A DNA stretch of 64,000 bases, from positions 86,461-150,460 of the forward strand of contig JACPXH010000007.1 of assembly GCA_016196625.1 (NCBI GenBank), given 5' to 3'. The stretch comes from Candidatus Parcubacteria bacterium (lineage in GTDB: Bacteria > Patescibacteriota > Minisyncoccia > JACPXH01). Positions within the stretch are counted from its first letter, which is position 1; each line of letters opens with the position of its first letter. The position numbers and the translations under genes were made by a program. Below the pieces are notes generated by a model. That model searched no databases. It saw nothing but the letters and a program-made list of their open reading frames with translations, and was not told the origin of the DNA. Shown here one piece after another: positions 1-50,064 of the stretch.

Positions 1-6283
<6,283 letters not shown>

Positions 6284-32101: not shown

Positions 32102-32373
32102 GCCAGCAGCAGCGGTAATACGAGGGCCCCGAGCGTTATCCGGAATCACTGGGCGTAAAGAGTCTGTAGGGGGTCTGGTTAGTCGGGTGTGAAATTTCCG
32201 CGCTCAACGCGGAGCCCGCATCCGAAACGGCCAGACTCGAGGACGTGAGAGGCGAGTGGAATGCACGGTGTAGGGGTGAAATCCGTTGATATCGTGCAGA
32301 ACACCGAAGGCGAAGGCAGCTCGCTGGCGCGTTCCTGACCCTGAGAGACGAAAGCGTGGGGAGTGAATGGGAT

Positions 32374-33349: not shown

Positions 33350-33450
33350 TAGATACCCCAGTAATCCACGCCCTAAACGATGAGGACTTGTTGTGTAGAG
33401 TATCGACCCTCTACGTGGCGAAGCTAACGCGTTAAGTCCTCCGCCTGGGA

Positions 33451-33482
<32 letters not shown>

Positions 33483-33493
33483 AGACGGGAGTT

Positions 33494-33528
<35 letters not shown>

Positions 33529-33624
33529 GTAAGCGAGGAACCTTACCAGGGCTTGACATGTTCGAGTAAGGCCGCCGAAAGGTGGTCCCTCCCACAAGGA
33601 CCCGAACACAGGTGCTGCATGGCT

Positions 33625-34429: not shown

Positions 34430-34528
34430 GTCGTCAGCTTGTGGCGTGAGTTGCTCCGTTCAGTCGGGTAACAAGCGCAACCCCTATGTGCTGTTACAGG
34501 TGTCAGCGCAAACTGCCTGCTTCAAGCA

Positions 34529-34564
<36 letters not shown>

Positions 34565-35144
34565 CTTTGATGCCCTGGGCGACACACGTGCTACAATGGC
34601 CGGTACAATGGGACGCCAACCCGTAAGGGGGAGCAAATCCCACCAAAACCGGTCTCAGTCCGGATTGAGGTCTGCAACCCGACCTCATGAAGCTGGAATC
34701 GCTAGTAATCGCGGATCAGCCACGCCGCGGTGAATACGTTCCCGAACTTTGTACTCACCGCCCGTCAGGCCAGTGAAGGCGGTAATGCCGGAAATCTGGG
34801 TTTGTCCCGGATGAAGGCAGGATCGCTGACAAGGGCTAAGTCGTAACAAGGCATCGGTAGCGGAAGCTGTCGATGGATCATCTCCTTTCTAGGGAGTTCT
34901 TACCTTCTACGGTTAAGAACCGCTAGTAAGGTCAAGTGGTCGGTGCTGCGTTTGCTGCCACAAGCACGAATGCGGCGGGAGTTGGCCGATGTCCTCAACC
35001 ATCGGCTGCTCGGCCCCGAAGCGTCATTCGGGCGGTCGGGACAACGAGGAAAAACTGGAATAGCAAACCGCGCGCCCTCTTGAGGGGGCGCGCGGTTGTG
35101 TTTTATGATGCGAGGGCGCTTGGATTGCGGCGTGCAGCTAAAGC

Positions 35145-35216
35145 GGGCGCGTAGTTCATTGGTAGAACGCCTTTCTGATAAAAAGGAGGTAGTAGGTTCG
35201 ATTCCTACCGCGCCCA
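35145..35216 (+). tRNA. tRNA-Ile (anticodon GAT), no encoded CCA
   Basis: gggcgcg acceptor / cgcgccc; anticodon loop ctGATaa; T-loop gtagg-ttcgatt-cctac. Confidence 0.9.
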
Positions 35217-35257
35217 CAGCAGATCTATTGCTGCATATTCGGACAGGAAAGTCGCTT

Positions 35258-36226
35258 ATGATAAAAGAGAAGATTAATAAGCCCAACATCCGAGATACTA
35301 AGCCGGGATACTCGGAGGGATATTATGATATTTTTGAACATTTGGAGGATTATGCTGCTAAGATTTTTGCCGCTGCAGACATTCATCCGCAAGAGACGAA
35401 AGTAATGGAGGGTGAAACTGGAGTTATCCTTAACGTATTTGATGGGCAACAGCGAGCCATCGTCAAGATTAATCCTTTCCATGGCGATCTCCTGACCAGC
35501 GACTACTTTTATAACAAGCTCGAGGGGTCTGGTGTCCCAGTTCCAAGCGTCTTATTTTTTGACGATTCAAGGCAAGTGATACCCTACGACTTCCAAGTTT
35601 TAGAGTATTTAGAGGGTGTAGATATACGGAGCATTCCGGCAAAACTTCACAGACAGGCGGGCACGCTCGTTGGCGAAGCGCTGCAGAAAATTCATAGCAT
35701 CAACGTTGAAGGATTCGGCTGGCCTTTATCAGGAGGCGGATGGGGCGCCACATCATGGCTGGATGCATTGCGAAAGAATTACTTTGATAGTTCTTTGGCA
35801 AAGAAACACGAAGTTTTTTCTACTGAAGAGATACGGCAGATAGAACGGATCACCTTCTTTAATGAAAAGCTCAATAGTATTGCACCTCATTTAATACATT
35901 CTGACGTAGGTCATGGGAATAGCTTATACAGGCTTGAAGACAATCAGTTGTTCCTCGTAGGATTCATAGATCCAGGCGGCATTATTGGGGGCGATCCGAT
36001 GTTTGATGTGCCGCTGAGCGTTGACGCTGAAGATGATTTTGAGAAAGGGATAGGGGAGGTATACACAGGGCGGAGATCTCTTTCTCCGGAAGAAGAGTAT
36101 CGTCTCAACCACCTCAACTTAGCCAGACGCTTTTGGTCAACATGCTGGCATTATGCGACCGGGAGAGACCATAAGCCGGTCAAAGACAAAACCGTTGTAC
36201 TACTCAAGAATCTGACCACGAGGTAG
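35258..36226 (+). CDS. aminoglycoside/choline-kinase-like phosphotransferase (APH family), low-GC gene directly 3' of tRNA-Ile
   Basis: Brenner motif LIHSDVGHGN, FIDPGG...GDPMFD; ORF-track N-terminal extension overlaps the tRNA and is rejected. Confidence 0.7.
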   Translation: MIKEKINKPNIRDTKPGYSEGYYDIFEHLEDYAAKIFAAADIHPQETKVMEGETGVILNVFDGQQRAIVKINPFHGDLLTSDYFYNKLEGSGVPVPSVLFFDDSRQVIPYDFQVLEYLEGVDIRSIPAKLHRQAGTLVGEALQKIHSINVEGFGWPLSGGGWGATSWLDALRKNYFDSSLAKKHEVFSTEEIRQIERITFFNEKLNSIAPHLIHSDVGHGNSLYRLEDNQLFLVGFIDPGGIIGGDPMFDVPLSVDAEDDFEKGIGEVYTGRRSLSPEEEYRLNHLNLARRFWSTCWHYATGRDHKPVKDKTVVLLKNLTTR

Positions 36227-36927
36227 TGGGTTTGATTCATATCGTGTCCACACCCATGAATAAATCCTGGCTCATTGCAATCGGAATCGTCGCGGCAATC
36301 GGCGTTGCTGTTTTCTTCGTCTCGATGCGGCGCGCGCCAGAACCGCCGGCGCCACCGTCGGGGCAACCGACGAATTCGCAGCCGTCTAACCAAACTCCCG
36401 CACCCGTGGACGCCGAAAGCGAAAAACCGCCGCGCGCATTCCCCGGCGTTCTTCCCGCCGAAGAAGTAGAAAACAAAATCGCGGTCATCAAAACGCCCAA
36501 GGGCGAAATTCGTTTTGAGCTTCTCGCTGCAGAGGCGCCTAAGACGACAAGCAACTTTGTGTATCTTGCAAAACAGGGCTACTTCAACGGCCTGAATTTC
36601 CATCGCGTGGAGTCGTGGGTGATTCAAGGCGGGGATCCGAACTGTGGTTCGACAGGCTCACCACCTTCGGCAGCTGGGCCGTGCGGCACCGGTGGGCCGG
36701 GTTATCGGTTTGAAGATGAGCCGGTGCGCTTGGAATACAAAACCGGCATCGTCGCCATGGCCAACGCCGGGTCCAACACTAACGGCTCGCAGTTTTTCAT
36801 CTTGAAACAGGACACGTCGCTCCCGCCCAACTACACTATTTTTGGGCGTGTGACGGCCGGGCAAGACGTAGTGGTAAAGATCGCTGCGGGAGACACGATG
36901 GAGAAAGTCGAGATTCTGTCGAAGTAA
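36226..36927 (+). CDS. membrane-anchored cyclophilin-type peptidyl-prolyl isomerase (start may be 36256)
   Basis: TM + Pro-rich linker, then FHRVESWVIQGGDP...IVAMANAGSNTNGSQFFI. Confidence 0.8.
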   Translation: MGLIHIVSTPMNKSWLIAIGIVAAIGVAVFFVSMRRAPEPPAPPSGQPTNSQPSNQTPAPVDAESEKPPRAFPGVLPAEEVENKIAVIKTPKGEIRFELLAAEAPKTTSNFVYLAKQGYFNGLNFHRVESWVIQGGDPNCGSTGSPPSAAGPCGTGGPGYRFEDEPVRLEYKTGIVAMANAGSNTNGSQFFILKQDTSLPPNYTIFGRVTAGQDVVVKIAAGDTMEKVEILSK

Positions 36928-36943
36928 TCCTGTATCATCAGGT

Positions 36944-37495
36944 ATGCGCCGACCCACGAAAATTCTGCTGACAACCCAGATGATCGCGGTGGGTGCCGCG
37001 GGGATGCTAGTGCCGATTTATGCGATCTACGTGGAAAAGATTGGCGGAGACATTCTCGCTGCGGCAGGCGCGTGGACGGTGTTTTCAATCGTGAGTGGGG
37101 CGCTCATGATGTTATTCGGTCGGCTCACCGATCGGGTGCGGGAACCAGAGTATTTCATCGTTGCCGGGTTCTTTGCGGCCGCGGTTGGTTACGTGGGGTA
37201 TCTCTTCGTGCAGAGCCCCACGCATCTGTTCATCGTGCAGATGGTGCTTGGCGTGTCGGTCGCGCTTATGACGCCCGCGCATGACGCGCTCTACACCGAG
37301 CACCTCGACGGCGGGCGGTTTGCGTCGGAGTGGGGGTTTTGGGAAGGCATGTGGAACATTACCGAGGCTGCGGCCGCGTTGGCTGGTGGGCTTGTGGTCG
37401 TATGGTTTGGGTTCAAAGCGCTGTTTATGATTATGGCGCTCTTGGCGTTTTCGACTGGTGTCTACGTGTGTGTCTTGCCGCGCCGGGTGCTGTGA
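36944..37495 (+). CDS. MFS-transporter C-terminal-half-like membrane protein (possible gene fragment)
   Basis: 6 predicted TM segments; only 183 aa. Confidence 0.45.
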   Translation: MRRPTKILLTTQMIAVGAAGMLVPIYAIYVEKIGGDILAAAGAWTVFSIVSGALMMLFGRLTDRVREPEYFIVAGFFAAAVGYVGYLFVQSPTHLFIVQMVLGVSVALMTPAHDALYTEHLDGGRFASEWGFWEGMWNITEAAAALAGGLVVVWFGFKALFMIMALLAFSTGVYVCVLPRRVL

Positions 37496-37585
37496 CCGAT
37501 TTGGCGCGTCAAGAAAAGAGAACGCCCGTCCCTCGATACACTAGGGACGGGCGTTGAATCTTGCGGAAGAAGGAACAGCGGGCGG

Positions 37586-38182
37586 CTAGACAGCGGCGAG
37601 AGATAGCGCCTTGAGCGCCGTTGGGACGATGATCCGGTGGCTCGGCACCAGATCATCCGGCAGGAGATCGGCCGGGTAAAAGGCACCGTTGGCCGGCGTG
37701 CCCTCGATGCGCGCAAGGTGAATGAGACAGCAGAACACTCCGCGCGTCGGTTCGGGGATGAGGCGGACGTCCACGAGCTGCGGCCAGCCGATGAATTTGG
37801 CCGGTGCAAGCTCCTTCGTCTCGAGCCGCCTGAACGCGGCCTCGAGATCCTCGCGCGCGATCCGCGCCTGAATGTCGTCGCCCAGTGGGATAGCGTCGGG
37901 CGCCTGGATGACGGTCCCGGGCGAGTGCAGCAATCCCGGAAATGCTTCGCTCGGCTCTTCCTCCTTCGTGGGCCGGCGCATGAGCAGCACTTGCAGGTCG
38001 CCGTGCGCCGGGCCGAAGCGATAGATCACAGTCTCGACCGCCGCTTTCGGCAGGAGCAGCGAGAGCGCCTCGAAGGCGTCCGGCTGCCACGGTTGGGTTA
38101 CGCCTAACCGCTTGAGCCAGTGCGTGCAGGTATCCCAGTCATCCTTGGTCGCGAGCGGCAGAACCCGTACCTGTTCGGTCAT
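37586..38182 (-). CDS. hypothetical protein, paralog A
   Basis: shares TQPW..FEAL...RRxT....HSPGT(V/I) pattern with adjacent ORF. Confidence 0.5.
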   Translation of the reverse strand: MTEQVRVLPLATKDDWDTCTHWLKRLGVTQPWQPDAFEALSLLLPKAAVETVIYRFGPAHGDLQVLLMRRPTKEEEPSEAFPGLLHSPGTVIQAPDAIPLGDDIQARIAREDLEAAFRRLETKELAPAKFIGWPQLVDVRLIPEPTRGVFCCLIHLARIEGTPANGAFYPADLLPDDLVPSHRIIVPTALKALSLAAV

Positions 38183-38212
38183 CCCATCCCCCCTTGCGTG
38201 GGCGTTGCTTGC

Positions 38213-38770
38213 TTACCGGCCAGCGAATCGATTCAGGCGGGGTAGTCCCGTGAGCGCGATTTCAATCAGCGAACGGTGGTGATCCATGAGTGGTTCTGGC
38301 AACGGTTTGTCGACCGGAAAAAATTGTCCGTGGTTCGGCATACCGATAACGTAGGCTATGTGGATCAGGCGTAGCTCGGTGCCGCGTCGGATCCGGTTCA
38401 GCTCAAGTTGTGTAAAGATCGGTTTGCTGATAGTGGCTGGCGCGAGTTCACGTTCCATCAACCGTTTTAGCGCATCGGTGAGCGTCTTGTCGGTGGCCCG
38501 CAATATTGTGCCGGGTGAGTGCCACTCGTTGGGCCAGTAGATGTCATTCGTCGCTCGGCGGGCCAAGAATACGCACCAGCCCTCGGGACGGTACTGGAAG
38601 CACACCACTTCGTAGGCCGCGCATACTACGCACCGTGCCAGAGCCTCGAACAGCTCGAGCGTCCAAGGCTGGGTGTGCTCCAATTTGCCGCACAGGCGAA
38701 TAAAGGTTCCGACTTCACGACGGGTCAGTTGGCCTTCTCGTAATAGCTGCGTCCCCATTGCCCTTGCCAT
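38213..38770 (-). CDS. hypothetical protein, paralog B
   Basis: tandem paralog of 37586-38182. Confidence 0.5.
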   Translation of the reverse strand: MARAMGTQLLREGQLTRREVGTFIRLCGKLEHTQPWTLELFEALARCVVCAAYEVVCFQYRPEGWCVFLARRATNDIYWPNEWHSPGTILRATDKTLTDALKRLMERELAPATISKPIFTQLELNRIRRGTELRLIHIAYVIGMPNHGQFFPVDKPLPEPLMDHHRSLIEIALTGLPRLNRFAGR

Positions 38771-38963
38771 CCGTTCCCTCCCTCCGTATGGGTGGCTGTT
38801 TGTCGCGCTGCCAACGCTGGTCTATTTTATATACCGGATCTATTGGATGAAGTCAACTGGTTGGTGTTATGTCGTCGGCGGCTCCGCCCGGGCCGCTGAT
38901 TCCTTTTTGTGCTTGGTGGATGTTCTTTTCAATCCGTACGCGCTGTGGTATACATAAAGCGGC

Positions 38964-39878
38964 ATGAAGTATCTCATCACCGGCGGCCCGAGGGGTTGGA
39001 TTGCCCAAAAGTTCGCGGCGTTTTTGAGTTCGCCGGGCGGCGAAGCCGAGCTGTCGGCCGTTAACATTGCGGACGCGACGGCAATCGAGGCCGAGCTCGA
39101 CCGGGCGAAGCCAGAGGTCCTCATCAATACTGCCGGCAAAACCGGCGGACCAACTGTGAGTCCCTCGGGCCAACCCGGGCGCAACATTGATTGGTGCGAA
39201 GACCACAAAGTTGAGACGCTCACCTCGAACGTGGTTGGGCCGGTGGAACTCGTGAAAGCCTGCAAGGCACGGAACATCAAGCTCGTGCACCTTTCAAGCG
39301 GCTGCATCTTTCAGGGTCGGGGGCACCTCGCGAGTGGTTTCCGTGAGGACGACGCGGTCGCCCCGCCGAGTTTTTACTCATGGACCAAATACTGGGCCGA
39401 TCAGTATTTGATGCAAGCCTGGCCAGAAGGCACGCTCATTTTGCGGCTGCGCATGCCCACGGACGCCGAACCCGGGCCGCGCAACCTCATCACCAAGCTT
39501 GCGGGTTATCCCAAGATCATTGACGTGGAGAATTCACTCACCGTGATCCCCGATCTTTTGGCGGCAACGAAGCAGCTGATTGCGCAGGGTGCGGTGGGGA
39601 TTTACCACGTGACCAATCCGGGGTCGGTCACGCATCGCGAGATTATGGGGCTCTATCAGAAGTTGGTTGATCCCGGGCACACCTTCGAGTTCATTTCAGA
39701 GGCAGAGCTCTACAGCCTTGGGCTTGCGAGTACCGGCAGATCCAACTGCATTTTAAACGTGGACAAACTTTTACGCGCGGGCGTGCAGATGCCGCCCATC
39801 AAGGAACGGATCCGTGAAGTAATGGCCGAGTATGCGGCGAATCTCAAACGCAGTCAGAGCGTTCCGGCTCAAGCGTAG
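38964..39878 (+). CDS. NAD(P)-dependent epimerase/reductase of extended SDR family (dTDP-4-dehydrorhamnose reductase-like)
   Basis: MKYLITGGPRGWIAQ Rossmann start; SSGCIF...YSWTKYWAD catalytic Y..K. Confidence 0.75.
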   Translation: MKYLITGGPRGWIAQKFAAFLSSPGGEAELSAVNIADATAIEAELDRAKPEVLINTAGKTGGPTVSPSGQPGRNIDWCEDHKVETLTSNVVGPVELVKACKARNIKLVHLSSGCIFQGRGHLASGFREDDAVAPPSFYSWTKYWADQYLMQAWPEGTLILRLRMPTDAEPGPRNLITKLAGYPKIIDVENSLTVIPDLLAATKQLIAQGAVGIYHVTNPGSVTHREIMGLYQKLVDPGHTFEFISEAELYSLGLASTGRSNCILNVDKLLRAGVQMPPIKERIREVMAEYAANLKRSQSVPAQA

Positions 39879-39971
39879 CCACGGTTCTGTGGTTTTGTGC
39901 ACGAAAGCGCCACCTTGCTCAAGGTGGTACTTCTGTTTTTGGCGTGAGCGTGGTATAACCTTGATTTAAGG

Positions 39972-40018
39972 GCTATAGCTTAGTGGCAGAGCACCCGCTT
40001 TGTTCACCCCGTACCAAA
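39972..40018 (+). pseudogene. truncated tRNA-Ala-like 5' half
   Basis: gggctatagcttagtggcagagcacccgctttg resembles first 33 nt of downstream tRNA-Ala; no T-arm/acceptor 3' strand. Confidence 0.45.
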
Positions 40019-40022
40019 ACTT

Positions 40023-40094
40023 GGGCCAGTAGTTTAGTGGTAGAACACCGCTTTTGCACAGCGGAGATCGCGGGTTCGATTCCCGCCTGGTCCA
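40023..40094 (+). tRNA. tRNA-Ala (anticodon TGC)
   Basis: gggccag/ctggtcc acceptor, anticodon loop ttTGCac, T-loop gcggg-ttcgatt-cccgc. Confidence 0.9.
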
Positions 40095-40137
40095 CAATTC
40101 AAAAAAGCATCACAGATATCCCTAATCTTATATATTC

Positions 40138-40914
40138 ATGGACACTCTCGATGACAAAGTAAATAAATCCGCGCTTGAAGCCCAAGTGAAAGATATGTAC
40201 CGGCAAGTGGCCCAGAATCCAAGGGGTGAGTACCATTTTGAAATGGGGCGAGATTTGGCCGAGAAGCTCGGCTATCCATCCGCAGACCTCGATGCCATCC
40301 CCGCAGAGGCGGTCGAATCATTTGCCGGTGTGGGCTACCACTTCGATCTGGCGGCGCTCAAGCCGGGCGAGCACGCGCTGGACGTAGGCAGCGGTTCAGG
40401 CACCGATGTCTTCTTTGCCGCACGCAAGGTTGGGCCAGCGGGGCACGTGGTGGGAGTGGACATGACGGACGAGCAGCTCGCAAAAGCCGAAGGGTTGCGT
40501 CAGCGTTATGGGTTTGAAAACGTATCGTTCGTGAAGGGCTATATTGAGCAGATTCCGGTGCCGGACGGCGGGTTTGACGTGGCTGTTTCCAATGGCGTCA
40601 TTAATCTTTCGGCCGAAAAGGTAAGGGTTGTGCAGGAGGTGAGTCGGGCGCTGAAAGTCGGCGGACGGCTGGCCATCTCTGACATTATGGCCTCGCACAA
40701 CTTGAGCGAGCGAATCAAGGCGAACGCGGAGCTGTGGGCGGCGTGCATTGGGGGCGCGGTTACTGAGCAAGAGCTCCGCCAATACCTTGAGCATGCTCAC
40801 TTGCAGTTGGTGGAGTTTCGCGAGAACCCGCAGTATAAGTTTTTGACTCATCCCGATGTCATGGAGAAATACGGCATCAAGAGCGTCTCGCTCTTGGCGA
40901 TCAAGACGGCATGA
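40138..40914 (+). CDS. class I SAM-dependent methyltransferase (ArsM/UbiE-like)
   Basis: LDVGSGSGTDV motif I, VSNGVINL. Confidence 0.75.
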   Translation: MDTLDDKVNKSALEAQVKDMYRQVAQNPRGEYHFEMGRDLAEKLGYPSADLDAIPAEAVESFAGVGYHFDLAALKPGEHALDVGSGSGTDVFFAARKVGPAGHVVGVDMTDEQLAKAEGLRQRYGFENVSFVKGYIEQIPVPDGGFDVAVSNGVINLSAEKVRVVQEVSRALKVGGRLAISDIMASHNLSERIKANAELWAACIGGAVTEQELRQYLEHAHLQLVEFRENPQYKFLTHPDVMEKYGIKSVSLLAIKTA

Positions 40915-41441
40915 TCAAAACGCCGTATGATCGAGTGATTGAGAAGTTCCTTGATCGCGAGGTTCAACCGGCGAGCCGTATCATTGACGTGGGATGCGGT
41001 ACTGGCTGGACGGCGCTCTTCTTGGCGCGCCGAAAGCCGGGTTCCCAAATCGTGGGCATTGATATTGACACGCTTACCGTCCACCGAGCGAATGCGCTAT
41101 TCCGTCGGGCGAGGCGCGAGAAGTTGGTGCAGTGCCATCGTTGCGGCGTTGAGCAGCTTCGCGTACGCTTCGGCACGCAGATGTTTGACTGCGCCATCAC
41201 GAGCCATACGCTGCACCATTTCGAGCGACCCGCAGCCGCTCTGCGGCAGATTCGGGCCGTGCTCAAGCGCGGGGGTCGTTTGCTGCTGGTCGAACTTTCG
41301 CCCCGCTACGGTGAAGCGCTCGACGATTGCCCCCGCTACTCGCTTGTCAAAATCAAGGAGTTCGTGCGGCGGGCTGGTTTTCGACGGGTAGGCGGAGCGG
41401 AGCGCGCGCCGGGTGTTGTGTTGGTTCGGGCGAGCCGATAG
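40911..41441 (+). CDS. class I SAM-dependent methyltransferase
   Basis: IIDVGCGTGWTA, GGRLLLVEL; 4-bp overlap with upstream MTase. Confidence 0.7.
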   Translation: MIKTPYDRVIEKFLDREVQPASRIIDVGCGTGWTALFLARRKPGSQIVGIDIDTLTVHRANALFRRARREKLVQCHRCGVEQLRVRFGTQMFDCAITSHTLHHFERPAAALRQIRAVLKRGGRLLLVELSPRYGEALDDCPRYSLVKIKEFVRRAGFRRVGGAERAPGVVLVRASR

Positions 41442-41704
41442 CCCAAGCTGTGGATAACGTTCGCGCAGCAAGCGATTGAGTGTGATAGAATTTGACTAGC
41501 CAGACTTTTCAATGGTTGATGGCCCGGCGCGGTTTTCTGCTCCAACGCATGCGGCAGCGCCGGAGAGCTACCCACCATTTAACAACTTAACCGTGATTGT
41601 CTTTCCTGCGCTGACTGGTCGATGTCAGCGTGTACGCATGGCTCCGCCATGCGGCAGGGGGAAGCAGAAGGCGGGGCTTTCCGCCCCGCTAAAAGGAATT
41701 TCCT

Positions 41705-42403
41705 ATGTATTCAGACATTGTTACGCTGCCCAATTGGGCCACCACCGTTGTTGATTCGCTCACGAGCCTATGGGCGCAGTTCATCGGTTTTCTGCCGGTG
41801 TTCTTGTCGGCTGTAATCGTATTCCTCATCGGTTGGCTTGTGGCAGCGGTTTTGGGCAAAGTTGTGCATCAGGTGGTCAAGGGTTTGCGCATTGACCAGT
41901 TGTTCGAGCAGATGGGCTTGGATAAGGCGCTCGCGCGAGGAGGGCTCAACTTGGATACGGGCCGGTTTGTGGGCGAGGTGGTGAAGTGGTTTGTCGTCGT
42001 GGCGTTCCTGCTGGCGGCCTCTGACATCCTTCAGCTGCGCGATTTCAACGACTTCTTGAAGAGCGTGTTGGGGTACATTCCGAACATCGTAGTGGCAGTG
42101 CTCATCCTGTTGGCCGGAGCATTGCTGGCCAACTTTCTTGAGCGCACGGTGGAAGCGAGCGTGGCGGCAGCCGAGCTCAAAAGCGGCAAGTTTCTTGGTG
42201 TGGTTACGCGCTGGTCGGTATGGATTTTTGCGATCTTAGCAGCCCTCGTGCAGCTCAACGTCGCGCGCCAATTGCTCACGACACTGTTTACCGGCGTCAT
42301 CGGGGCCCTCGCACTGGCCGCGGGCTTGGCCTTTGGTTTGGGCGGCAAGGATTTCGCCTCTGATTGGCTTGAGAAAATAAAGAAAGATGTAACAGAGCGG
42401 TAG
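41705..42403 (+). CDS. membrane protein with duplicated conserved-TM-helix repeat (mechanosensitive-channel-like)
   Basis: two internal repeats each TM + VVKxxxVVAFLLAA / LAALVQLNVA. Confidence 0.6.
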   Translation: MYSDIVTLPNWATTVVDSLTSLWAQFIGFLPVFLSAVIVFLIGWLVAAVLGKVVHQVVKGLRIDQLFEQMGLDKALARGGLNLDTGRFVGEVVKWFVVVAFLLAASDILQLRDFNDFLKSVLGYIPNIVVAVLILLAGALLANFLERTVEASVAAAELKSGKFLGVVTRWSVWIFAILAALVQLNVARQLLTTLFTGVIGALALAAGLAFGLGGKDFASDWLEKIKKDVTER

Positions 42404-42485
42404 CAGTCGGCAAGGGATATCGGGTTGTCGGCCGGCGGGGCGAGCGCCTCGCCGGCTTTGCTTTTTTCATGTGCAAAACAGGGTA

Positions 42486-42513
42486 TTGACACGTATTTTT
42501 TGAAGCTTATAAT
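42486..42513 (+). promoter_or_regulatory. consensus sigma70 promoter TTGACA-16-TATAAT, ~410 nt upstream of 23S
   Basis: exact -35 and -10 hexamers; preceded by terminator hairpin + T-tract of upstream gene. Confidence 0.5.
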
Positions 42514-42812
42514 GGGAACTGCCTTATGGCACGAACCCAAACCATACTCGATACCAGAAGCGGATAGACCTCGCGCGATTTATGATGTGTGCGCGAAGCC
42601 GCTTCTCCAGAGCGGTTTTCGTTTTCTTTATAGAGCGGGTGAGGAGTTTGGGGCGGAGCGCTCAGGGTTTTATTCCGAGCGCTGCGCTCCGGACTCAAGG
42701 GTTCGGGAGACCTTTGACAACCGAATACAGGCAGACAACATTGCAAAAAGACCCGCTTATCTGTTTTAGCGAAACAGAGGCGGGCATAAACAAAATACCT
42801 CTTATACGCTTC

Positions 42813-42914
42813 TCGATGCTTCGCATCGGGAATGTCTAATGACTAATGCCGAATGTCGAATTCGTTTTCGTCATTCGTCATTCGAAATTCGGCATTTCCG
42901 CTGCGGAGCAGCGG
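42813..42914. repeat. palindromic repeat family A (gtctaatg subfamily) abutting 23S 5' end
   Basis: cgatgcttcgcatcgg-gaatgtctaatgactaatgccgaatgtcgaattcg...cgaaattcggcatttcc-gctgcggagcagcgg. Confidence 0.65.
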
Positions 42915-43186
42915 GTGTGCGTTGCGAGGTAAACGGGATCGTAAAATAAAGCGTATGGTGGATGCCTTGACACCAAACGGCGATGAAGGACGTGGCGTGG
43001 CTGCGATAAGCTGCGGGGAGCTGCCGAGCAAGCTTTGATCCGCAGATGTCCGAATGGGGAAACCCAGCATGGCAAACCCATGTTACCCGCCTAAGTTTTT
43101 GGGCCTATTGAGAAGGGTCTAAAAACTTAGGCGGGAGCGCACCCGGGGAAGTGAAACATCTCAGTACCCGGAGGAACAGAAAACAA

Positions 43187-43285
43187 TGCTAGCTTTCTAG
43201 CTTTTAGCTTCCTAGCTTTTTAGGCGCGAGTGAACTGTCGTTCGTTCCTAGGAAGCTAAGAAGCTAATCAGCTAAGAAGCTAGCC
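43187..43285. repeat. agct-rich palindromic expansion inside 23S (family B)
   Basis: tgctagctttctagcttttagcttcctagc...gctaagaagctaatcagctaagaagctagc; related copy at 52316-52385. Confidence 0.6.
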
Positions 43286-43330
43286 CATTCCCTTAGTAGC
43301 GGCGAGCGAACCGGGAAAAGCCCAAACCAG

Positions 43331-43420
43331 CCCGAAGCTTCGCTTCGGGAATGTCTAATGTCGAATCCGTTTCGTCATTCGTTAATTAGGAATTAGTCAT
43401 TTCCGCAGCGGAGCTGCGGG
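43331..43420. repeat. family A palindromic insertion in 23S
   Basis: gaagcttcgcttcgggaatgtctaatgtcgaatccgtttcgtcattcg...tcatttccgcagcggagctgcgg. Confidence 0.65.
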
Positions 43421-43694
43421 TTGGGGTTGTAAGAGTATATCGCTTCTTTTCTTTCATCGTATCCCCCGCCTCCATTCGGATGGCGGATTAGGGGTACGGA
43501 GAAAGTTGAGAAAAGAAGAACACCTTGGAGCCGCGTTAGCCGAACACCCCTGGAACGGGTGGCCAGAGAGCATAATAGCTGCGTAGGCGAAAACGTTGGC
43601 TCGCTTCTCGATATAAATCTTGAGTACTGCCCCGCCCGGCTGCGGGGTAGGAAGCAGGGGCGACTACGCCCCAAGGCTAAATACGTTTGGTGAT

Positions 43695-43731
<37 letters not shown>

Positions 43732-43789
43732 CAGCCCGGTGAGGGCGGTGAAATAGTACCTGAAACCATACGCTGACAAGGAGTCAACG

Positions 43790-43889
43790 CCGGTGCTTCG
43801 CACCGGGAATGTCAAATGTCAAAGCTCAAATGTCAAAAGCGATTTGGCATTTGGATTTAGTCATTTGGATTTCCGATGCGGAGCATCGG
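43790..43889. repeat. family A palindromic insertion in 23S
   Basis: ccggtgcttcgcaccgggaatgtcaaatgtcaaagctcaaatgtcaaa...catttggatttccgatgcggagcatcgg. Confidence 0.7.
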
Positions 43890-44450
43890 TTATGGCGTGC
43901 CTATTGAAGAATGAGCCAACGACTTTATCTCGTCCGCAAGTTTAACCCCGTTAACGGGGGGAGGCACAGGGAAACCGAGTCCGAATAGGGCGTGGCGATC
44001 CTTTCGTACTATGCTCATCTTTCGATGAGCAGGGTGCGAATTGATCGCTAGCGGGCGGGTTAAGACCCGAAGCCAGGCGAGCTACCCATGGCCAGGGTGA
44101 ACTTCGGTGATAAACCGGAGGGAGGCCCGAACCCATTGGCCGTGCAATACCATGGGATGAGCTGTGGGTAGAAGTGAAAAGCTAATCGAGCCTGGGAATA
44201 GCTGGTTTTCTCCGAAATAGTTTTAGGACTAGCCTCGAGCGTTCACGATCGGAGGTAGAGCACTGGATGGATACGGCTGCCGATGAGGTACTGCATCCAA
44301 TCAAACTCCGAATGCCGATCGTTCAAGAGCTCGGGAGTCAGACGATGGGGGCGAAGCTCCGTCGTCGAGAGGGAAACAGCCCGTGATCGTCACGTAAGGT
44401 CCCTAAATCTCCACTCAGTGCAAGTAAGGAAGTGTCCCGCCTTAGACAGA

Positions 44451-44494
<44 letters not shown>

Positions 44495-44577
44495 CAGCTC
44501 ACTGTTCTATGGCAACTACGGCGGGGCGCGCCGAAAATGTATCGGGGCTTAAGTGGAGTACCGAACGTACGGATCAG

Positions 44578-44727
44578 CCGATGCTTCGCATCGGGAATGT
44601 CAAATGCCAAAGCTCAAATGTCAAGTCAAATCCAAAGTTCAAATGCCAAAGTCGTTTGGTTTTTGGATTTTGATCATTGATTTGTCATTTGGATTTTGAA
44701 ATTTGGATTTCCGGTGCGGAGCACCGG
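44578..44727. repeat. family A palindromic insertion in 23S (longest copy)
   Basis: ccgatgcttcgcatcgggaatgtcaaatgccaaagctcaaatgtcaagtcaaatccaaag...tttggatttccggtgcggagcaccgg. Confidence 0.7.
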
Positions 44728-45271
44728 TTGGTGGTAGGAGAACGTTCCCTGTGCAGTGAAGCCGCATCCGCGAGGAGCGGTGGAGCGCAGGGAAGTGCAA
44801 ATGTTGGCATGAGTAACCGCAAGTCCGGTGAGAGTCCGGACCACCGCAAGTCTAAGGTTTCCTTGGCAATGGCAATCATCCAAGGGTGAGGCGGGCCTAA
44901 GGCGATGGCGAAAGCCGGAGCTGATGGACAGCCGGTTAATATTCCGGCCCCGCCCGAACGACCAACGGGGCGACGGCGCAGCGTAGATCGAGCGTGTTAT
45001 TGGATTTGCGTCCCCGAGCCAGCGCGCCTTTCAGGCAAATCCGGAAGGCTGCCTTTGATGGCGAGCGCACGCACAGGGGTAAGGTTGACCGCAAGGTCGG
45101 CCAATTCGATCGAAACAGCGTCCCAGAAAACCCCCTAGGATTAATCGTTCGGGCGTCCGTACCGCAAAACCGACACAGGTAGACGAGGCGAGTAGCCTCA
45201 GGTGAACGGGTGAGTCCTCGTTAAGGAACTCGGCAAAACAGCGGTCGTAAGTTCGCGATAAGACCTCCCTG

Positions 45272-45359
45272 CCCGATGCTTCGCATCGGGAATGTCAAAT
45301 TTCAAAGCTCAAATGTCAAAAACGATTTGGCATTTGGATTTCCGCTGCGGAGCAGCGGG
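45272..45359. repeat. family A palindromic insertion in 23S
   Basis: cccgatgcttcgcatcgggaatgtcaaatttcaaagctcaaatgtcaaaaacgatttggcatttggatttccgctgcggagcagcgg. Confidence 0.7.
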
Positions 45360-45559
45360 CGGGGCGCAGCGAAAGACCCCTAGCGACTGTTTATCAAAAA
45401 CACAGGTTCCTGCTAACTCGTAAGAGGATGTATAGGAGCTGACGCCTGACCAGTGCTGGAACGTTAACGGTTGCGGTGCTTGTTGCTCTTAGGAGCAGTG
45501 AGTGCCAAGGCCCGAAGCGCCAGTGAACGTCCGCCCTAACTATAAGGGTGTTAAAGTAG

Positions 45560-45875
45560 TGGAATTTCACGTCGCGGTGCCGCAAGGCAACGTAGCGGCT
45601 TTGCTGCTTTAACTGAAAATCTGGCTATATGCGGGAAAGTCTTGAAAGCCGTGAGTGCGACACAGTAGTTCCTGTAGCCATCTGGTATGGAACAAACTGG
45701 GAGCAAAAATCTCACGGATGAGACAATCCGCAGGAAAGATCCGAAAGGAAATCCTCAGACACTAATACGCCAGACCGACCACATGAATTCTGATGTGGCT
45801 GGAAGATAGAGTGCGATCTTCATGGCGACATGAAGTTGCTATGCGGGTGATCGCATAGCGCATAACAGTCATAAG
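45560..45875 (+). mobile_element. 23S group I intron 1 (~316 nt, ORF-less) in GGUAG|CGAAAUUCC region (~E. coli 1910); boundaries +/- few nt
   Basis: exon resumes cgaaattccttggcaggtaag; ggctatatgcggg, tcagacactaatacgcc, ggaagatagagtgcg blocks. Confidence 0.55.
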
Positions 45876-45908
45876 CGAAATTCCTTGGCAGGTAAGAAAG
45901 ATGCCTGC

Positions 45909-46172
45909 TCCGGCGGAAACGTCGGAGAAAAACCCGGCTTATAACGGTGAAGCCCGACGCGGTTGCAGTTGACAAGAGACTGCGTGAACCGCGGGGTGAT
46001 ACCGTGGGAAGCCGCCCGCCGAAGTGCGGGTTGGCCCCGTAACGACTTGTTCCGAGAGGAACAGAGCCATCGCGAGATATGTGGATGGCTAACACGCCGG
46101 CCCCTCCTTCGGGAGGGTGAAGATATAGTCTATGCCACCAGGAATGGTGGGCCACATGAAGTTCTGTCCCGC
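45909..46172 (+). mobile_element. 23S group I intron 2 (~264 nt, ORF-less) splitting CCUGC|ACGAAUGGCGUAA; boundaries approximate
   Basis: shared blocks ggcttataacggtgaagc, ataccgtgggaag, ccccgtaacgact, gaagatatagtctatgcc. Confidence 0.5.
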
Positions 46173-46472
46173 ATGAAAGGCGTAACGACTGGGGGACTGT
46201 CTCAACGAGGAGCCCGGTGAAAATGCAATGCCGGTGAAGACGCCGGCTGCCTGCAACTAGACGAAAAGACCCCGGGAGCTTTACTATAGCTTGGCATTGG
46301 CCATGTGTTGGGCATGCGTAGCATAGATGGGAGGCGTTGAAGGCTGGATTTCGGTTCAGCTGGAGCCGACAGTGAAATACCATTCTTGTTCGATGCTTGG
46401 TCTAACCGGATCCGCAAAACGGATTTGGGACCGTGCCTGGTGGGTAGTTTGAGTGGGGCGCTCTCCTCAAAG

Positions 46473-47449
46473 CCGGTTGATCTCCTTCGGTCAATCGGCG
46501 GGGGACATCTCGAAACCCGAGATGAAACATTCGGCTATATGCTGGAACATCCGTGGTACTCGCGGGTAGTGAAATTTCACTGAAAATCTCGCGGGTGGCA
46601 CCCATAGGTCGGCGGACAACCAGCAGGCAACCCGCACTCGAAATATCGAGCGCGGGGAGTCCTCAACGACTATACGCCGAACCGAGCACGCATAAGTGCT
46701 CGGATGATATAGTCTGATCTTCTGGGCAACCAGAAGCATTGCTGCTCGCATCGTTCACGGTGCGGCAGCGAGACCCAAGATATGCATTCCAACAGGATTG
46801 AGAAGTACAAGCAGAAGCTGAAACTCACGAAACGCCAGAGGCAGATAGTGGTGGGAGCGGTTCTCGGCGACGGGCATCTGGAGACACAAGATGCCGGGAG
46901 AACCTATCGGCTGAAAATCGAACATTCTGTCGGACAGCGCGCTTATGTTGATTGGTTGTACGATCAGTTGAAACCGCTGGTAGGTACTTTACCCAAGGCG
47001 CGTGTCAGGACGAGAACGTTTCCCAGTGGATATGTTAGTACGGGAGTCAGTTACGGTTTTGCGACGTACTCCCTCGGAGCCCTGCGCTTCTATGCGCAGC
47101 AGTTCTATCGAGGGGGAGAGAAGATCGTTCCTCGATTGATCGGGAAATTGTTGACGCCGACATCCATTGCCATCTGGTACTTGGATGACGGCTCGGTCAA
47201 ATCGAATCGACACCGAACCTTCGTCATCCATACGTATGGATACGCACGGCGCGATCTGCAGCGTTTGCAAAGCGCGCTTGAGCAGTTCGGTATCAGGACC
47301 ACCTTACACACGCAAGTGCGGCTGTCCGGCCGATATCTGCGGTTGTATGTGGTGTCGGAATCGGCGGCGACATTCAGGGCGCTTGTCGAACCGATCATTA
47401 GAGCAATTCCGCAAATGCATTACAAGTTGGGGAACAAATTGCCTAAAAG
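46473..47449 (+). mobile_element. 23S group I intron 3 (~977 nt) with LAGLIDADG endonuclease, splitting CUCAAAG|GUAACGGAGGAGC
   Basis: cggctatatgctggaacatccg; ctcaacgactatacgcc; gatgatatagtctgatc; ORF stop codon overlaps exon 2 start. Confidence 0.6.
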
Positions 47450-47453
47450 GTAA
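46782..47453 (+). CDS. LAGLIDADG homing endonuclease (double motif) in 23S intron 3
   Basis: VVGAVLGDGHL and IAIWYLDDGSV. Confidence 0.8.
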   Translation: MHSNRIEKYKQKLKLTKRQRQIVVGAVLGDGHLETQDAGRTYRLKIEHSVGQRAYVDWLYDQLKPLVGTLPKARVRTRTFPSGYVSTGVSYGFATYSLGALRFYAQQFYRGGEKIVPRLIGKLLTPTSIAIWYLDDGSVKSNRHRTFVIHTYGYARRDLQRLQSALEQFGIRTTLHTQVRLSGRYLRLYVVSESAATFRALVEPIIRAIPQMHYKLGNKLPKR

Positions 47454-47629
47454 CGGAGGAGCTTATAAGGTCGGCTAGCTCCGGATGGACATCGGAGCGG
47501 TCCTGTAAAGGGATAAGCCGGCTTTACTGCAAGGCCAACGCGCCGCGCAGTCGCGAAAGCGGAACTTAGTGATCCGATCGTACATTGTAGAATGGCGAAA
47601 GCTCAACGGATAAAAGTTACCCCGGGGAT

Positions 47630-47949
47630 AGACCCTAAAAGGGTTGTTGTCTAATCCCACAGCAATGTGGGAAGCGTACGGCTTATAACGGTGAACCAGA
47701 GGCGGTCTTTCCTCGCTGCTTGCGAGGTTTTCGACCTCTTAGGAATACCGTGGGAAGCTGCCCGCCTCAATTTTGCGAAACAAAAGTTGGGCGGGTTAGC
47801 CCCGTAACGACTGATCTGAAAGGAGAGGTCCGATGCACTATCGTGCTCGGACAACACGCCGTCTCCTATCATTGAAAGACCACGCCATGGTCTGCGAAGA
47901 CCTAAAGCGGGTGATAGGATGAAGATATAGTCTAATCCGTAAAGGATTG
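47630..47949 (+). mobile_element. 23S group I intron 4 (320 nt, ORF-less) at peptidyl-transferase centre GGGGAU|AACAGGCUG (U2449/A2450 E. coli numbering)
   Basis: exon1 ...cccggggat; exon2 aacaggctggtagtgcccaagag; terminal G; gggtgataggatgaagatatagtctaatcc. Confidence 0.7.
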
Positions 47950-48001
47950 AACAGGCTGGTAGTGCCCAAGAGCCCCTATCGACGGCACTGTTCGGCACCT
48001 T

Positions 48002-48460
48002 AAGACATTGGGGTGCTACGACAGCAATGTCGTATCTTCGTTCAATGAGCGAAGACGAAAAATCTGGCTTATAACGGTGGACTCCATATGGTATACTGAA
48101 CATATGGACAATACCGTGGGAAGTTGATTCGAAGCTCTATGAAAGAATATATTCCGCTGATATTTGCGTGGATATTTCTTGCCATGGTTCTTGCGTTCGC
48201 TGTTTACATCATAGCGAACTTTAGAACGTAGTAAGCTGCATGAAGGGTTCGAATTTAACCCCGTAGAGACTTGCCGTTTTGAACGGCAGATAGCTGCATG
48301 CATATAGCTATAATACGCCAGCCCCCTCCTCCGCTCGCACAAGCGAGCTACGGAAGAGCATAGCCTCATGCGAAGAGGCCTTGCCCGCCGAAGCTCGAGC
48401 AATGCGAGAGCGAAGGTGGGGTGAAGATATAGTCCACGCTGTTAGTAATAACAGAGAACG
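48002..48460 (+). mobile_element. 23S group I intron 5 (~459 nt, ORF-less with AT-rich filler) after GGCACCU (~E. coli 2500); 3' boundary +/-2
   Basis: exon2 (ta)cgatgtcggctcgccacatcctgg; ggggtgaagatatagtccacgc. Confidence 0.55.
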
Positions 48461-48500
48461 TACGATGTCGGCTCGCCACATCCTGGAGGTGAAGCAGCTT

Positions 48501-48532
<32 letters not shown>

Positions 48533-48555
48533 CACGCGAGCTGGGTTCAGACCGT

Positions 48556-48830
48556 AACTACATAATGTAGTGGCGGCTCTGTCAAGTAATTGACAGATGC
48601 ACAAACTGACTCATATCGGTGAAGTCCTCGCATTGCACATTGACCTGTCGCACGCGAGGATAATACCGAGGGAAGCGCACTCTGCATGCTTTGCGGCAGA
48701 GTGTCGCCCCGTAGAGACTTAGCCCATGAAGGCTAGAGTCGCTCTGAATGAGCGGCTAAAACGTCAGTCAACCGCGCGAATGCGCGGTTGGTGGTATAGT
48801 CCATGCATCGAGTAATCGGTGATTAACATG
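48556..48830 (+). mobile_element. 23S group I intron 6 (275 nt, ORF-less) splitting AGACCGU|CGCGAGACAGG (E. coli ~2590-2596, I-CreI/I-CeuI region)
   Basis: reconstituted exon agaccgtcgcgagacaggtcgg matches AGAACGUCGUGAGACAGUUCGG; terminal G. Confidence 0.65.
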
Positions 48831-48893
48831 CGCGAGACAGGTCGGACTCCTATCTGTTGCAGGCGTTGATGATTGAGGAGAGTCGTCCCTAGT

Positions 48894-49670
48894 AAACAAA
48901 AATTGCTACTTCGCGGAGTAATCCGCGATGACAATTCGGCTAATAACGGTGGAATCTCAACTTCTTGTCTCTGGTTGTGGACACACGAGTGGCCTCGGTC
49001 CGCTATTCGTGAGATAATTACTTGAGGACCAGAACAAGCATTGAGACAATACCGTGGGAAGTCGATCAAACATAGATCTTGCTTATATCGCTGGTTTTTT
49101 GGACGGCGATGGCAGCTTGATGCTCCAAGTAAAGAAACGGAAAGATGGAAGATTGCGGCGACGGTTTATGTGCACGATCTGTTTTTACCAAGACAGTCGC
49201 CATGAGCAGCCGCTCCGCTGGATTCGAAAAACTCTTGGCATCGGCTACGTATCGCGTCGGAATGACGGCATGAGCGAACTTCGTATTAACGGTTTCGCGC
49301 AGGTTCGAGATATCCTGACTGCGCTCAAGCCGTTCATACGATTCAAGAAGATTCAGGCGCGGGCGATGCTCAAAGCCGTAAATCTCTTGAGCGCTAAATC
49401 AAGTGTCCATTTGACGCGCGTTGAACTGCTGGAGATTGTTGAATGCATCTTGGCAATTCAGCGTAGCAACTATGCAAGTAAGGCGAAGAAAACTCAAGAT
49501 AGGCTGATCAAAATGTTTGATTTGACCCCGTAACGACTGGATTCTATCGGTCAAAAACCAATAGAGGAAGATGGTGCCACGTGTGCGCCATAACACGCCG
49601 ACCCCTCCTTTGCCAAAGGCTTCGGAGGGTGAAGATATAGTCTACGCTCCGAGTGATCGGAGACTACGTG
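48894..49670 (+). mobile_element. 23S group I intron 7 (777 nt) with single-motif LAGLIDADG endonuclease, inserted inside the sarcin-ricin loop (CCUAGU|ACGAGAGGACC; between U2656 and A2657 E. coli numbering)
   Basis: exon1 ...gtccctagt (ends U); intron ...ggagactacgtg (ends G); exon2 acgagaggaccggg; inter-intron exon 48831-48893 is exactly 63 nt as in E. coli. Confidence 0.7.
49054..49533 (+). CDS. LAGLIDADG homing endonuclease (single motif, I-CreI-like homodimer type), GTG start inside conserved ataccgtgggaag block
   Basis: LAYIAGFLDGDGS. Confidence 0.8.
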   Translation: MGSRSNIDLAYIAGFLDGDGSLMLQVKKRKDGRLRRRFMCTICFYQDSRHEQPLRWIRKTLGIGYVSRRNDGMSELRINGFAQVRDILTALKPFIRFKKIQARAMLKAVNLLSAKSSVHLTRVELLEIVECILAIQRSNYASKAKKTQDRLIKMFDLTP

Positions 49671-49750
49671 ACGAGAGGACCGGGACGAACGAACCTCTGG
49701 TGTACCAGCTGTCCCGCCCGGGGCATCGCTGGGTAGCTATGTTCGGCTGT

Positions 49751-49782
<32 letters not shown>

Positions 49783-49950
49783 AACTCCAAGATAAATCAT
49801 CGTATGAGGCCCCAGAGAGATTATCTGGTTGATAGGCGCCAGGTGTACGCACCGTAAGGTGTTCAGCCGAGGCGTACTAATCGGCCCAAGATCCCGTTTA
49901 CCTCGCAGCTCACAGGCAGCTGCCCAATGTTGCCAATCGAATATCGAAAA

Positions 49951-50064
49951 GCGTCTGGTGATTCGAGCGCGGTTGCCCCACTCCTTCCCATTCCGAACAG
50001 GATAGTGAAAGACCGCAGCGGCGATGATACTCCTTATGGGGGAAAGTAGCCCATTGCCAGGCGC
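49951..50064 (+). rRNA. rrf: 5S rRNA
   Basis: gcgtctggtg...ccattccgaacaggatagtgaaa...gatgatact...gggaaagtag...cattgccaggcgc. Confidence 0.8.

Follow-up and report, generated by a model that had tools for sequence, protein, structure and literature searches.

In bacteria of the Candidate Phyla Radiation (CPR), 23S rRNA genes as a rule contain group I introns that carry LAGLIDADG genes, and one more example has little weight as a discovery. A survey of 348 CPR 23S rRNA genes delineated 14 insertion hot spots (Tsurumaki, Sato, Saito and Kanai, 2024, J Bacteriol 206:e00074-24; PMC11270868; hereafter Tsurumaki et al., 2024), with LAGLIDADG_1 proteins being predominantly encoded at positions 1917, 1931, 1952, 2593, 2604 and 2657, that is, at sites 23IS6-8 and 23IS12-14. 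The last of these, 23IS14 at position 2657, is of the group I type and mostly carries LAGLIDADG_1, and group I introns at 23IS9-11, 23IS13 and 23IS14 are, according to the same survey, unreported in other bacteria. Here, we analyse a 777-nt insertion, with its open reading frame (ORF) for a LAGLIDADG protein, in the 23S rRNA gene of a 64,000-nt stretch of DNA (the whole stretch is referred to as the window). This insertion is very probably a group I intron that is mobile and has an IA-like core, located between U2656 and A2657 of a CPR 23S rRNA and belonging to a large family that occupies the same site across CPR lineages.

Considering that the position, the group I type, the LAGLIDADG_1 domain and the CPR host are all the same, the window element is a member of the 23IS14 group. 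It shares with that group the gene and the E. coli coordinate (the insertion precedes A2657), the group-I-like character, the single-domain LAGLIDADG_1 protein and the CPR hosts, as well as the co-occurrence with introns at 1931, 1952 and 2593. Thus, the site had already been catalogued in 2024, and the window intron adds a well-formed member to a family already known and does not represent an element of a new kind. The first-pass annotation, which took no rRNA intron to have been described at this position, was mistaken on this point, given the catalogue entry and the at least 97 introns that we find at the same junction; its list of commonly catalogued large subunit (LSU) rRNA sites predates the 2024 survey. 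What differs is that the catalogue entry, in the available text of the survey, comes without a secondary structure, splice sites or an enzyme test for this site, and that the window protein is a new sequence, with its best match being 74% identical and no exact copy present in the sequence collection searched. The word 'sarcin' does not occur in the available text of Tsurumaki et al. (2024), which accordingly makes no mention of the sarcin-ricin loop for this site. In the literature searched, we found no remark placing an intron site inside this loop, no other report of an intron at position 2656/2657 and no test of an enzyme from this site; the position is not mentioned in the available main text of a study on archaeal group I introns (Nawrocki et al., 2018). 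New with respect to the 2024 catalogue are, therefore, the splice sites, the full covarying secondary structure and the protein fold for the sarcin-ricin loop family. Further value lies in the ends of the ORF, which are borrowed from the ribozyme core, and in a predicted endonuclease aimed at a practically immutable sequence.

Among enzymes of known structure, the closest are I-CreI, I-MsoI and I-CvuI, encoded by introns at L2593 of green-algal chloroplast 23S rRNA genes. These elements and the window element are alike in being group I introns at universally conserved sites of LSU domains V/VI and in encoding a single-motif LAGLIDADG protein of the homodimer type, of about 160 aa (template modelling (TM) score about 0.8, identity 24-33%, catalytic residues kept). 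By contrast, the window host is bacterial (CPR), and its ORF resides in the P6 loop, with the start and stop codons inside core sequences; because the insertion is at 2656 rather than at 2593, a different DNA target is expected. Introns of the T4 td type, belonging to subgroup IA, carry an ORF within the loop of P6, a pair of additional hairpins after P7 and before the 3' strand of P3, and a P10 that is short or absent. The window intron resembles them in all these features, whereas its host gene encodes rRNA rather than a protein and its enzyme is of the LAGLIDADG and not of the GIY-YIG family. The sole biochemically tested CPR LAGLIDADG enzyme found in the literature searched is I-ShaI from Ca. 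Shapirobacteria, likewise a single-domain LAGLIDADG_1 protein from a group-I-like insertion in CPR 23S rRNA, which comes, however, from 23IS7 and not from the sarcin-ricin loop and represents another protein clade, reportedly 42% identical to I-CeuI. I-ShaI cleaves its insertion-site DNA and dimerises (Tsurumaki et al., 2024), and thus supports by analogy the mechanism proposed below. CPR insertions are said to be removed from transcripts (Brown et al., as cited in the available text of Tsurumaki et al., 2024).

Insertion site in the sarcin-ricin loop

Coordinates refer to the window and rRNA positions to E. coli rrlH. The rRNA genes and the segments around the insertion are as follows.

31075-34886 (16S rRNA), tRNA-Ile, tRNA-Ala, 42949-49888 (23S rRNA), 49954-50062 (5S rRNA): genes of the rRNA locus
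48831-48893, plus strand: 63-nt 23S exon, E. coli 2594-2656, whose last bases (...CCCUAGU) form the sarcin-ricin loop's 5' half; from BLAST and global alignment to rrlH and the Rfam LSU model
48894-49670, plus strand: 777-nt group I intron at L2656, CPR 23IS14 family; from the LSU model, the shared junction and covariation
49671-49888, plus strand: 3' exon, starting with ACGAGAGGACC (E. coli 2657 onward) and reaching the end of the 23S rRNA gene

The insertion lies between U2656 and A2657, 3 nt ahead of A2660, exactly where the first-pass annotation had put it, as judged from comparison with E. coli rrlH, in which AGTACGAGAGGACC begins at position 2654 (BLAST), and from the Rfam bacterial LSU model. 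With slashes marking the splice sites, the junctions read ...GTCCCTAGT (48893) / aaacaa...ctacgtg (49670) / ACGAGAGGACC or, in a longer form, ...GAGTCGTCCCTAGT (48893) / aaacaaaaattgctac ... ggagactacgtg (49670) / ACGAGAGGACCGGG. Excision of the 777 nt reconstitutes the conserved sarcin-ricin loop AGUACGAGAGGACC, as had been claimed. The LSU model aligns CCCUAGUA-(787)-GGGACG to the consensus ccccUAGUA-(10)-ggggcg, with flanking posterior probabilities of 0.9-1.0; the 777 extra bases fall within the loop of helix 95 (H95), in agreement with an insertion between U2656 and A2657. The remaining ambiguity amounts to one base (an A is present on both sides) and is resolved in favour of U2656/A2657 by the invariant U·G pair of P1 and by the covarying P9.0 just before the terminal G. 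The length of the preceding exon, 63 nt, and its description as lying between introns 6 and 7 were both correct, the latter because there are seven intron-sized insertions in this 23S rRNA gene.

The bulged-G/GAGA motif of the sarcin-ricin loop is needed for the function of EF-Tu and EF-G. Few known RNA motifs are as conserved and as critical for function as the one that contains this site, which agrees with the general rule of rRNA introns being grouped at functional centres. Removal of an intervening sequence by RNase III-type cleavage without ligation, yielding a fragmented 23S rRNA, or retention of the insert as an expansion segment in the mature rRNA would have to be reconciled with this location, since the bulged-G/GAGA motif would be lost if U2656 and A2657 were separated, be it by a break or by a 777-nt insert. 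Bacterial 23S intervening sequences do exist and are thought to be present in CPR at 23IS2 and 23IS4 (Tsurumaki et al., 2024), but, for the element at 2656, both possibilities appear extremely improbable, also in view of the RNA structure discussed below.

Distribution of the intron family

We scanned one genome per species with the pattern GATATAGTC-N18-48-ACGAGAGGAC, obtaining at least 120 matches, and combined these scan matches with look-up loci and the window into a single intron set, in which a few duplicate loci are included. The set contains at least 97 introns with both junctions at the identical site, almost all of them, among the matches listed, from Patescibacteria. The core CTAGT/ACGAGAGGACCG is identical in all of these hosts and in E. 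coli. Five look-up loci, representing three distinct places (L002/L003, L004 and L005/L006), carry a homologous gene in the insertion and the same junctions, CYTAGT/aa...g/ACGAGAGGACC. In about 65 of the introns, the ORF is intact, includes the motif and spans about 155-165 aa; roughly 15-20 have an intermediate length and a decayed ORF, and 12, of 279-370 nt, are ORF-less. ORF decay is thus common in the family, roughly a quarter to a third of the members having lost or degraded the ORF, and a homing cycle would be expected to leave just such a mixture, with the ORF being intact, decayed or absent at a single site across about a hundred species.

Five of the matches listed bear non-CPR labels. 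Two of these, labelled Hyphomonas (L036) and Bacillota (L083), appear to be chance matches to the pattern, displaying no 23S similarity in a BLAST comparison with the 3' third of E. coli 23S rRNA. The other three, labelled Elusimicrobiota (L024), Methylomirabilota (L047) and Gammaproteobacteria (L069), are real introns, with both the rRNA and the intron resembling CPR loci, and probably represent mis-binned or mis-labelled CPR contigs. Consequently, there is no solid case of the intron outside CPR among the matches listed.

The same distribution bears on the suspicion that selfish elements have overrun a dead rRNA pseudogene in the window, or that the copy is a chimera of the assembly. Such a suspicion might be raised by the seven introns and by the separation of the genes for 16S and 23S rRNA by 8 kb with protein genes between them. 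However, the 23S exons fit the bacterial LSU model along their whole length with high posterior probabilities, the same junction recurs independently in about a hundred assemblies, and CPR genomes usually contain a single rRNA copy, with up to 16 insertions per gene having been reported (Tsurumaki et al., 2024). We therefore give this explanation hardly any credence.

Secondary structure of the ribozyme

The core alignment comprises the 12 natural ORF-less introns and the ORF-trimmed window intron (13 sequences) and includes 52 pairs, the pseudoknot among them. The elements of the window intron are listed in 5' to 3' order.

48890-48895 with 48903-48908, plus strand: P1, in which exon UAGU and intron AA pair with the guide UUGCUA; the wobble U48893·G48905 marks the 5' splice site
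48911-48928, plus strand: P2, 7-bp hairpin with a GUAA (GNRA) tetraloop; compensatory changes in six of the seven pairs
48936-48940, plus strand: P3 5' strand, UCGGC, pairing with 49597-49601 (GCCGA); pseudoknot with P7
48946-48951 with 49050-49055, plus strand: P4, 100% paired and nearly invariant, enclosing P5
48955-48960 with 49041-49046, plus strand: P5, covariation present
48961-49040, plus strand: long P5 extension, folding at -28.1 kcal/mol (z = -2.7)
49056-49070 with 49516-49529, plus strand: P6, stem closing the loop that contains the endonuclease ORF
49533-49538, plus strand: P7 5' strand, A-(C bulge)-GACU, pairing with 49639-49643 (AGUCU)
49542-49566 and 49571-49591, plus strand: P7.1 and P7.2, a pair of hairpins that follow P7 and precede the P3 3' strand; minimum free energy -16.2 kcal/mol, z = -2.6 (segment 49542-49591)
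49597-49601, plus strand: P3 3' strand, GCCGA
49603-49629, plus strand: P8 hairpin, CCCUCC...GGAGGG; minimum free energy -15.3 kcal/mol, z = -2.5; two basal pairs conserved
49630-49643, plus strand: J8/7 and P7 3' strand, UGAAGAUAUAGUCU, invariant in relatives
49644-49645 with 49668-49669, plus strand: P9.0, 2 bp; both pairs with compensatory changes
49647-49662, plus strand: P9 hairpin with a GUGA loop; compensatory changes in five of the six pairs
49670, plus strand: terminal guanosine, the last intron base; all 95 family members end in G

The 52 pairs are standard in 99.3% of the cells of the 13-sequence alignment, compared to 34.5-43.8% when the 3' partners are slid by 1-3 columns. Both partners have changed in 23 pairs, and the observed covariation was reached by none of 500 shuffles. 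Extending the test to 95 distinct family members gives 92% of cells paired against 35-46% for the slid controls. The compensatory changes are located in P2, P3, P5, P6, P9.0 and P9. In P3, they affect three of the five pairs, with 100% of cells being paired, and in P6 four pairs, nine P6 pairs being paired in 100% of the sequences; in ORF-less relatives, P6 is a simple hairpin. The P9.0 pairs alternate among AU, GU and GC and among CG, UA and AU, respectively, in the 95 sequences. In P1, 13/13 sequences have standard pairs at all six positions, and the U·G that marks the 5' splice site is invariant in these and in 95/95 relatives. The GACU/AGUC pairing of P7, with its bulged nucleotide, is likewise invariant and 100% paired in 13/13; its sequence is the same as that of the P7 core of the Tetrahymena intron, and G49535-C49642 would be the guanosine-binding pair. 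The peripheral hairpins (P5 extension, P7.1/P7.2 and P8) are more stable than shuffled sequences (z about -2.5 to -2.7). The group I assignment of the first-pass annotation is thus backed by comparative structure with covariation.

Hairpins P7.1 and P7.2 between P7 and the P3 3' strand are a hallmark of subgroup IA, and the position of the extra hairpins was reportedly treated as an IA feature by Michel and Westhof in 1990. The window core, with its two hairpins in this interval and an ORF in P6, recalls this subgroup and is best described as IA-like; relatives have a spacer of 45-105 nt at the place of P7.1/P7.2. In the folding of the alignment, RNAalifold paired the 3' strand of P7 with the 3' exon, which is spurious; this program alone is unable to represent the pseudoknot of P3 with P7 and so cannot display both helices at once, and the structure was corrected by hand and then tested by the pair counts.

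Some observations on the RNA, along with one on the DNA target that is taken up with the protein below, weigh against reading the element as a group I intron that is mobile. With RF00028, the group I model of Rfam, the score is only 18.7 bits (E 0.03-0.11), far short of the gathering score of 50. Helices P1, P4 and P7 are invariant and hence provide no covariation evidence in either direction, the upper part of P8 is too variable in length for pair scoring, and no P10 pairing is visible between the guide region and the 3' exon. The low score can be traced to the 480-nt ORF in P6, which splits the core, so that the model mis-aligns the 5' half into the ORF; we, therefore, replaced RF00028 as a test by the family alignment and the pair counts. 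The alignment to this model that the first-pass annotation had proposed as a check succeeded in part: it fell below threshold as a whole, whereas in the 3' part the consensus J8/7-P7 (UGAAGAUAUAGUCUA) and the P9 hairpin were matched almost perfectly, with UGAAGAUAUAGUCU fitting the Rfam group I consensus UgAAGAUAUAGUCua at a posterior probability near 1. The same model classed only 45% of the CPR 23S insertions as group I (Tsurumaki et al., 2024). The subthreshold score is also the observation on the RNA that speaks for an RNase III-processed or retained insert; by contrast, the full group I architecture with compensatory changes, and the 5' splice-site U·G and the terminal G with its covarying P9.0, which together define exon ends that restore the universal loop, are at odds with either fate.

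The encoded LAGLIDADG protein

The intron encodes a single-motif protein of the LAGLIDADG type.

49054-49533, plus strand: ORF of 159 aa with a GTG start, single-motif LAGLIDADG homing endonuclease of the I-CreI/I-MsoI family

The identification of this ORF as a single-motif LAGLIDADG gene, put forward in the first-pass annotation, is borne out by sequence profiles, structure-database matches and the predicted fold. Pfam LAGLIDADG_1 matches residues 12-89 in a single stretch with 38.6 bits (cut-off 23.1), and a sequence search of the PDB retrieves I-CreI, I-MsoI and I-CvuI over nearly the full length, with E-values of about 1e-12 to 1e-31. An AlphaFold model built from 35 homologues (pLDDT, the predicted local distance difference test score, 85.3) displays the α-β-β-α-β-β-α order, with predicted elements H3-19, E20-28, E36-46, H48-61, E65-68, E74-79 and H81-94, where H denotes helices and E strands; its best Foldseek matches are the same three enzymes, with TM scores of 0.78-0.82 and identities of 24-33%. 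In the PDB alignment, D19, Q46 and K98 of the ORF protein correspond to D20, Q47 and K98 of I-CreI, and all three are invariant in the 35 homologues; R51 of I-CreI is replaced by His. As far as can be predicted from its sequence, the protein is a single-motif enzyme of the homodimer type. We detected 3321 homologues at E<=1e-3; the best 120 of these are 64-74% identical to the window protein and nearly all 159 aa long, and every one with a named source comes from a CPR lineage.

Both ends of the ORF are embedded in the ribozyme core. The start, GUG GGA AGU (49054-49062), coincides with the 3' strand of P4 and the beginning of P6, and the end, ACC CCG UAA (49525-49533), with the 3' strand of P6 and J6/7; the same core sequences are retained in the ORF-less introns. 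Residues G2, S3, T158 and P159 are invariant across the protein family, probably reflecting an RNA constraint, given that the ends of the ORF overlap the ribozyme core.

Enzymes that act as homodimers are expected to prefer pseudo-palindromic sites. The observation on the DNA target announced above is that the spliced sequence is only weakly palindromic, with at best 5-6 of 11 half-site pairs for centres 2655/6 to 2657/8 and a further maximum of 5/11 at 2660/1 in the palindromy scan. A first impression of a GTCC...GGAC palindrome centred on A2657 was not strong enough to be claimed.

The weak palindromy is among the observations that lend some substance to the sole alternative with real weight, namely, that the ribozyme splices but the element is no longer mobile, with the protein being an inactive endonuclease or mainly a splicing helper (maturase). 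Some fungal mitochondrial LAGLIDADG proteins act as maturases. The loss or degradation of the ORF in a sizeable minority of the family points in the same direction, and in the literature searched we met no report of an active enzyme from this site, the tested one originating from 23IS7 (Tsurumaki et al., 2024). Nevertheless, the window ORF is full length, at 159 aa like its homologues, its predicted fold is complete, and the residues aligned to the I-CreI catalytic positions are kept, all of which argues against an inactive protein. An obligatory maturase role is disfavoured by the 12 ORF-less relatives, which retain an intact core, so that splicing in the family does not depend on the protein. 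On balance, we consider it unlikely that the element has lost its mobility or that the protein serves mainly in splicing, and continue with the mobile intron as the preferred interpretation.

Proposed splicing and homing mechanism

The intron would be transcribed within the pre-23S rRNA, where exon UAGU and intron AA would pair with the guide UUGCUA to form P1, presenting the U·G wobble at the cleavage site, while the P3/P7 pseudoknot would build the active site together with J8/7 and the P4-P6 domain. The attack after U2656 would come from a free guanosine occupying the G49535-C49642 pair of P7; subsequently, G49670, placed by the 2-bp P9.0, would take the place of this guanosine and the 3' OH of the exon would attack before A2657. 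The ensuing exon ligation would restore the loop AGUACGAGAGGACC. Active ribosomes should arise from the spliced rRNA only, as the elongation-factor GTPases cannot function with a sarcin-ricin loop that is interrupted. As for homing, the 159-aa I-CreI-type protein produced from the P6 loop would dimerise and cut intron-less 23S rDNA at or near the insertion site, and repair of the cut would copy the intron in.

The expectation of the first-pass annotation that the enzyme would recognise sarcin-ricin-loop DNA is reasonable by analogy. Whether the protein is an active endonuclease with a so far uncharacterised specificity for this DNA, which could cleave 23S rDNA without the intron well beyond CPR, and possibly LSU genes of organelles or eukaryotes, appears to us evenly balanced. 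If so, this activity would explain the spread of the intron across CPR phyla and would provide a naturally occurring nuclease whose site is not open to mutation by the cell. Since the factor-binding loop is disabled as long as the intron is unspliced, its splicing might also be imagined as a checkpoint or throttle on ribosome activity in slow-growing symbionts, a speculation that we regard as very doubtful.

Host and genomic context

The host is a CPR bacterium by several signs, including the short RpoB and RpoC (rpoB, 1041 aa; rpoC, 1237 aa), the gene order 23S-5S-p276-RodA that is common to CPR loci (RodA identity 44-50%) and the nearest named relatives of both the intron and the protein, which are all CPR among the matches listed. 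The G+C content of the window, about 56%, is high for a CPR host.

The 23S rRNA gene contains, besides the intron at 2656, six other intron-sized insertions, mapped by global alignment to E. coli; this alignment broke down inside the last intron, whose boundaries rest instead on the window sequence, the LSU model and BLAST against rrlH.

45558-45873: insertion after E. coli 1931
about 45896-46167: insertion after E. coli ~1951
46468-47441: insertion after E. coli 2262, with a LAGLIDADG_2 ORF at 46782-47453
47630-47949: insertion after E. coli 2449
48001-48462: insertion after E. coli 2500
48556-48830: insertion after E. coli 2593, 275 nt

Four further insertions of 60-140 nt are found near E. 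coli positions 227, 300, 534 and 1185. The J6/7-P7 motif CCCGTAACGACT occurs exactly in the introns at ~1951, 2449 and 2656 (46036-46047, 47801-47812 and 49527-49538), that is, three matches versus 0.19 expected, and the J8/7 motif AAGATATAGTC, allowing for at most one mismatch, occurs seven times versus 0.32 expected, at 33274, 34390, 46120, 46704, 47922, 48424 and 49632, two of these occurrences being in 16S introns. The shared motifs imply that several introns of this genome have a core of one type, possibly as a result of spread from site to site.

Essential genes of this genome bear a heavy load of selfish elements. The 16S rRNA gene (31075-34886) is about 3.8 kb long and contains group I introns with LAGLIDADG_3-type ORFs at 32518-33282 and 33729-34292; its best Rfam score is obtained with the archaeal and not with the bacterial small subunit rRNA model. 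The GyrB frame (23-6283) spans 2086 aa, with intein-splicing/Hint matches at several places and a LAGLIDADG_3 domain, and the 1427-aa DnaE ORF (19576-23859, minus strand) contains an intein. The 8 kb separating the genes for 16S and 23S rRNA (34887-42948) are an unusual rRNA spacer, consisting of tRNA-Ile (35145), about 5 kb with genes of ordinary appearance (for an APH-like kinase, a cyclophilin, an MFS fragment and an RmlD-like epimerase), and then tRNA-Ala (40023), two S-adenosylmethionine (SAM)-dependent methyltransferases and an MscS-like protein, followed by the 23S rRNA gene. Finally, at 544 aa, the product of a ThyX-like ORF (10689-12323) is roughly double the normal length and matches the Thy1 domain in two stretches, which may be due to an insertion, a duplication or an over-long ORF call.

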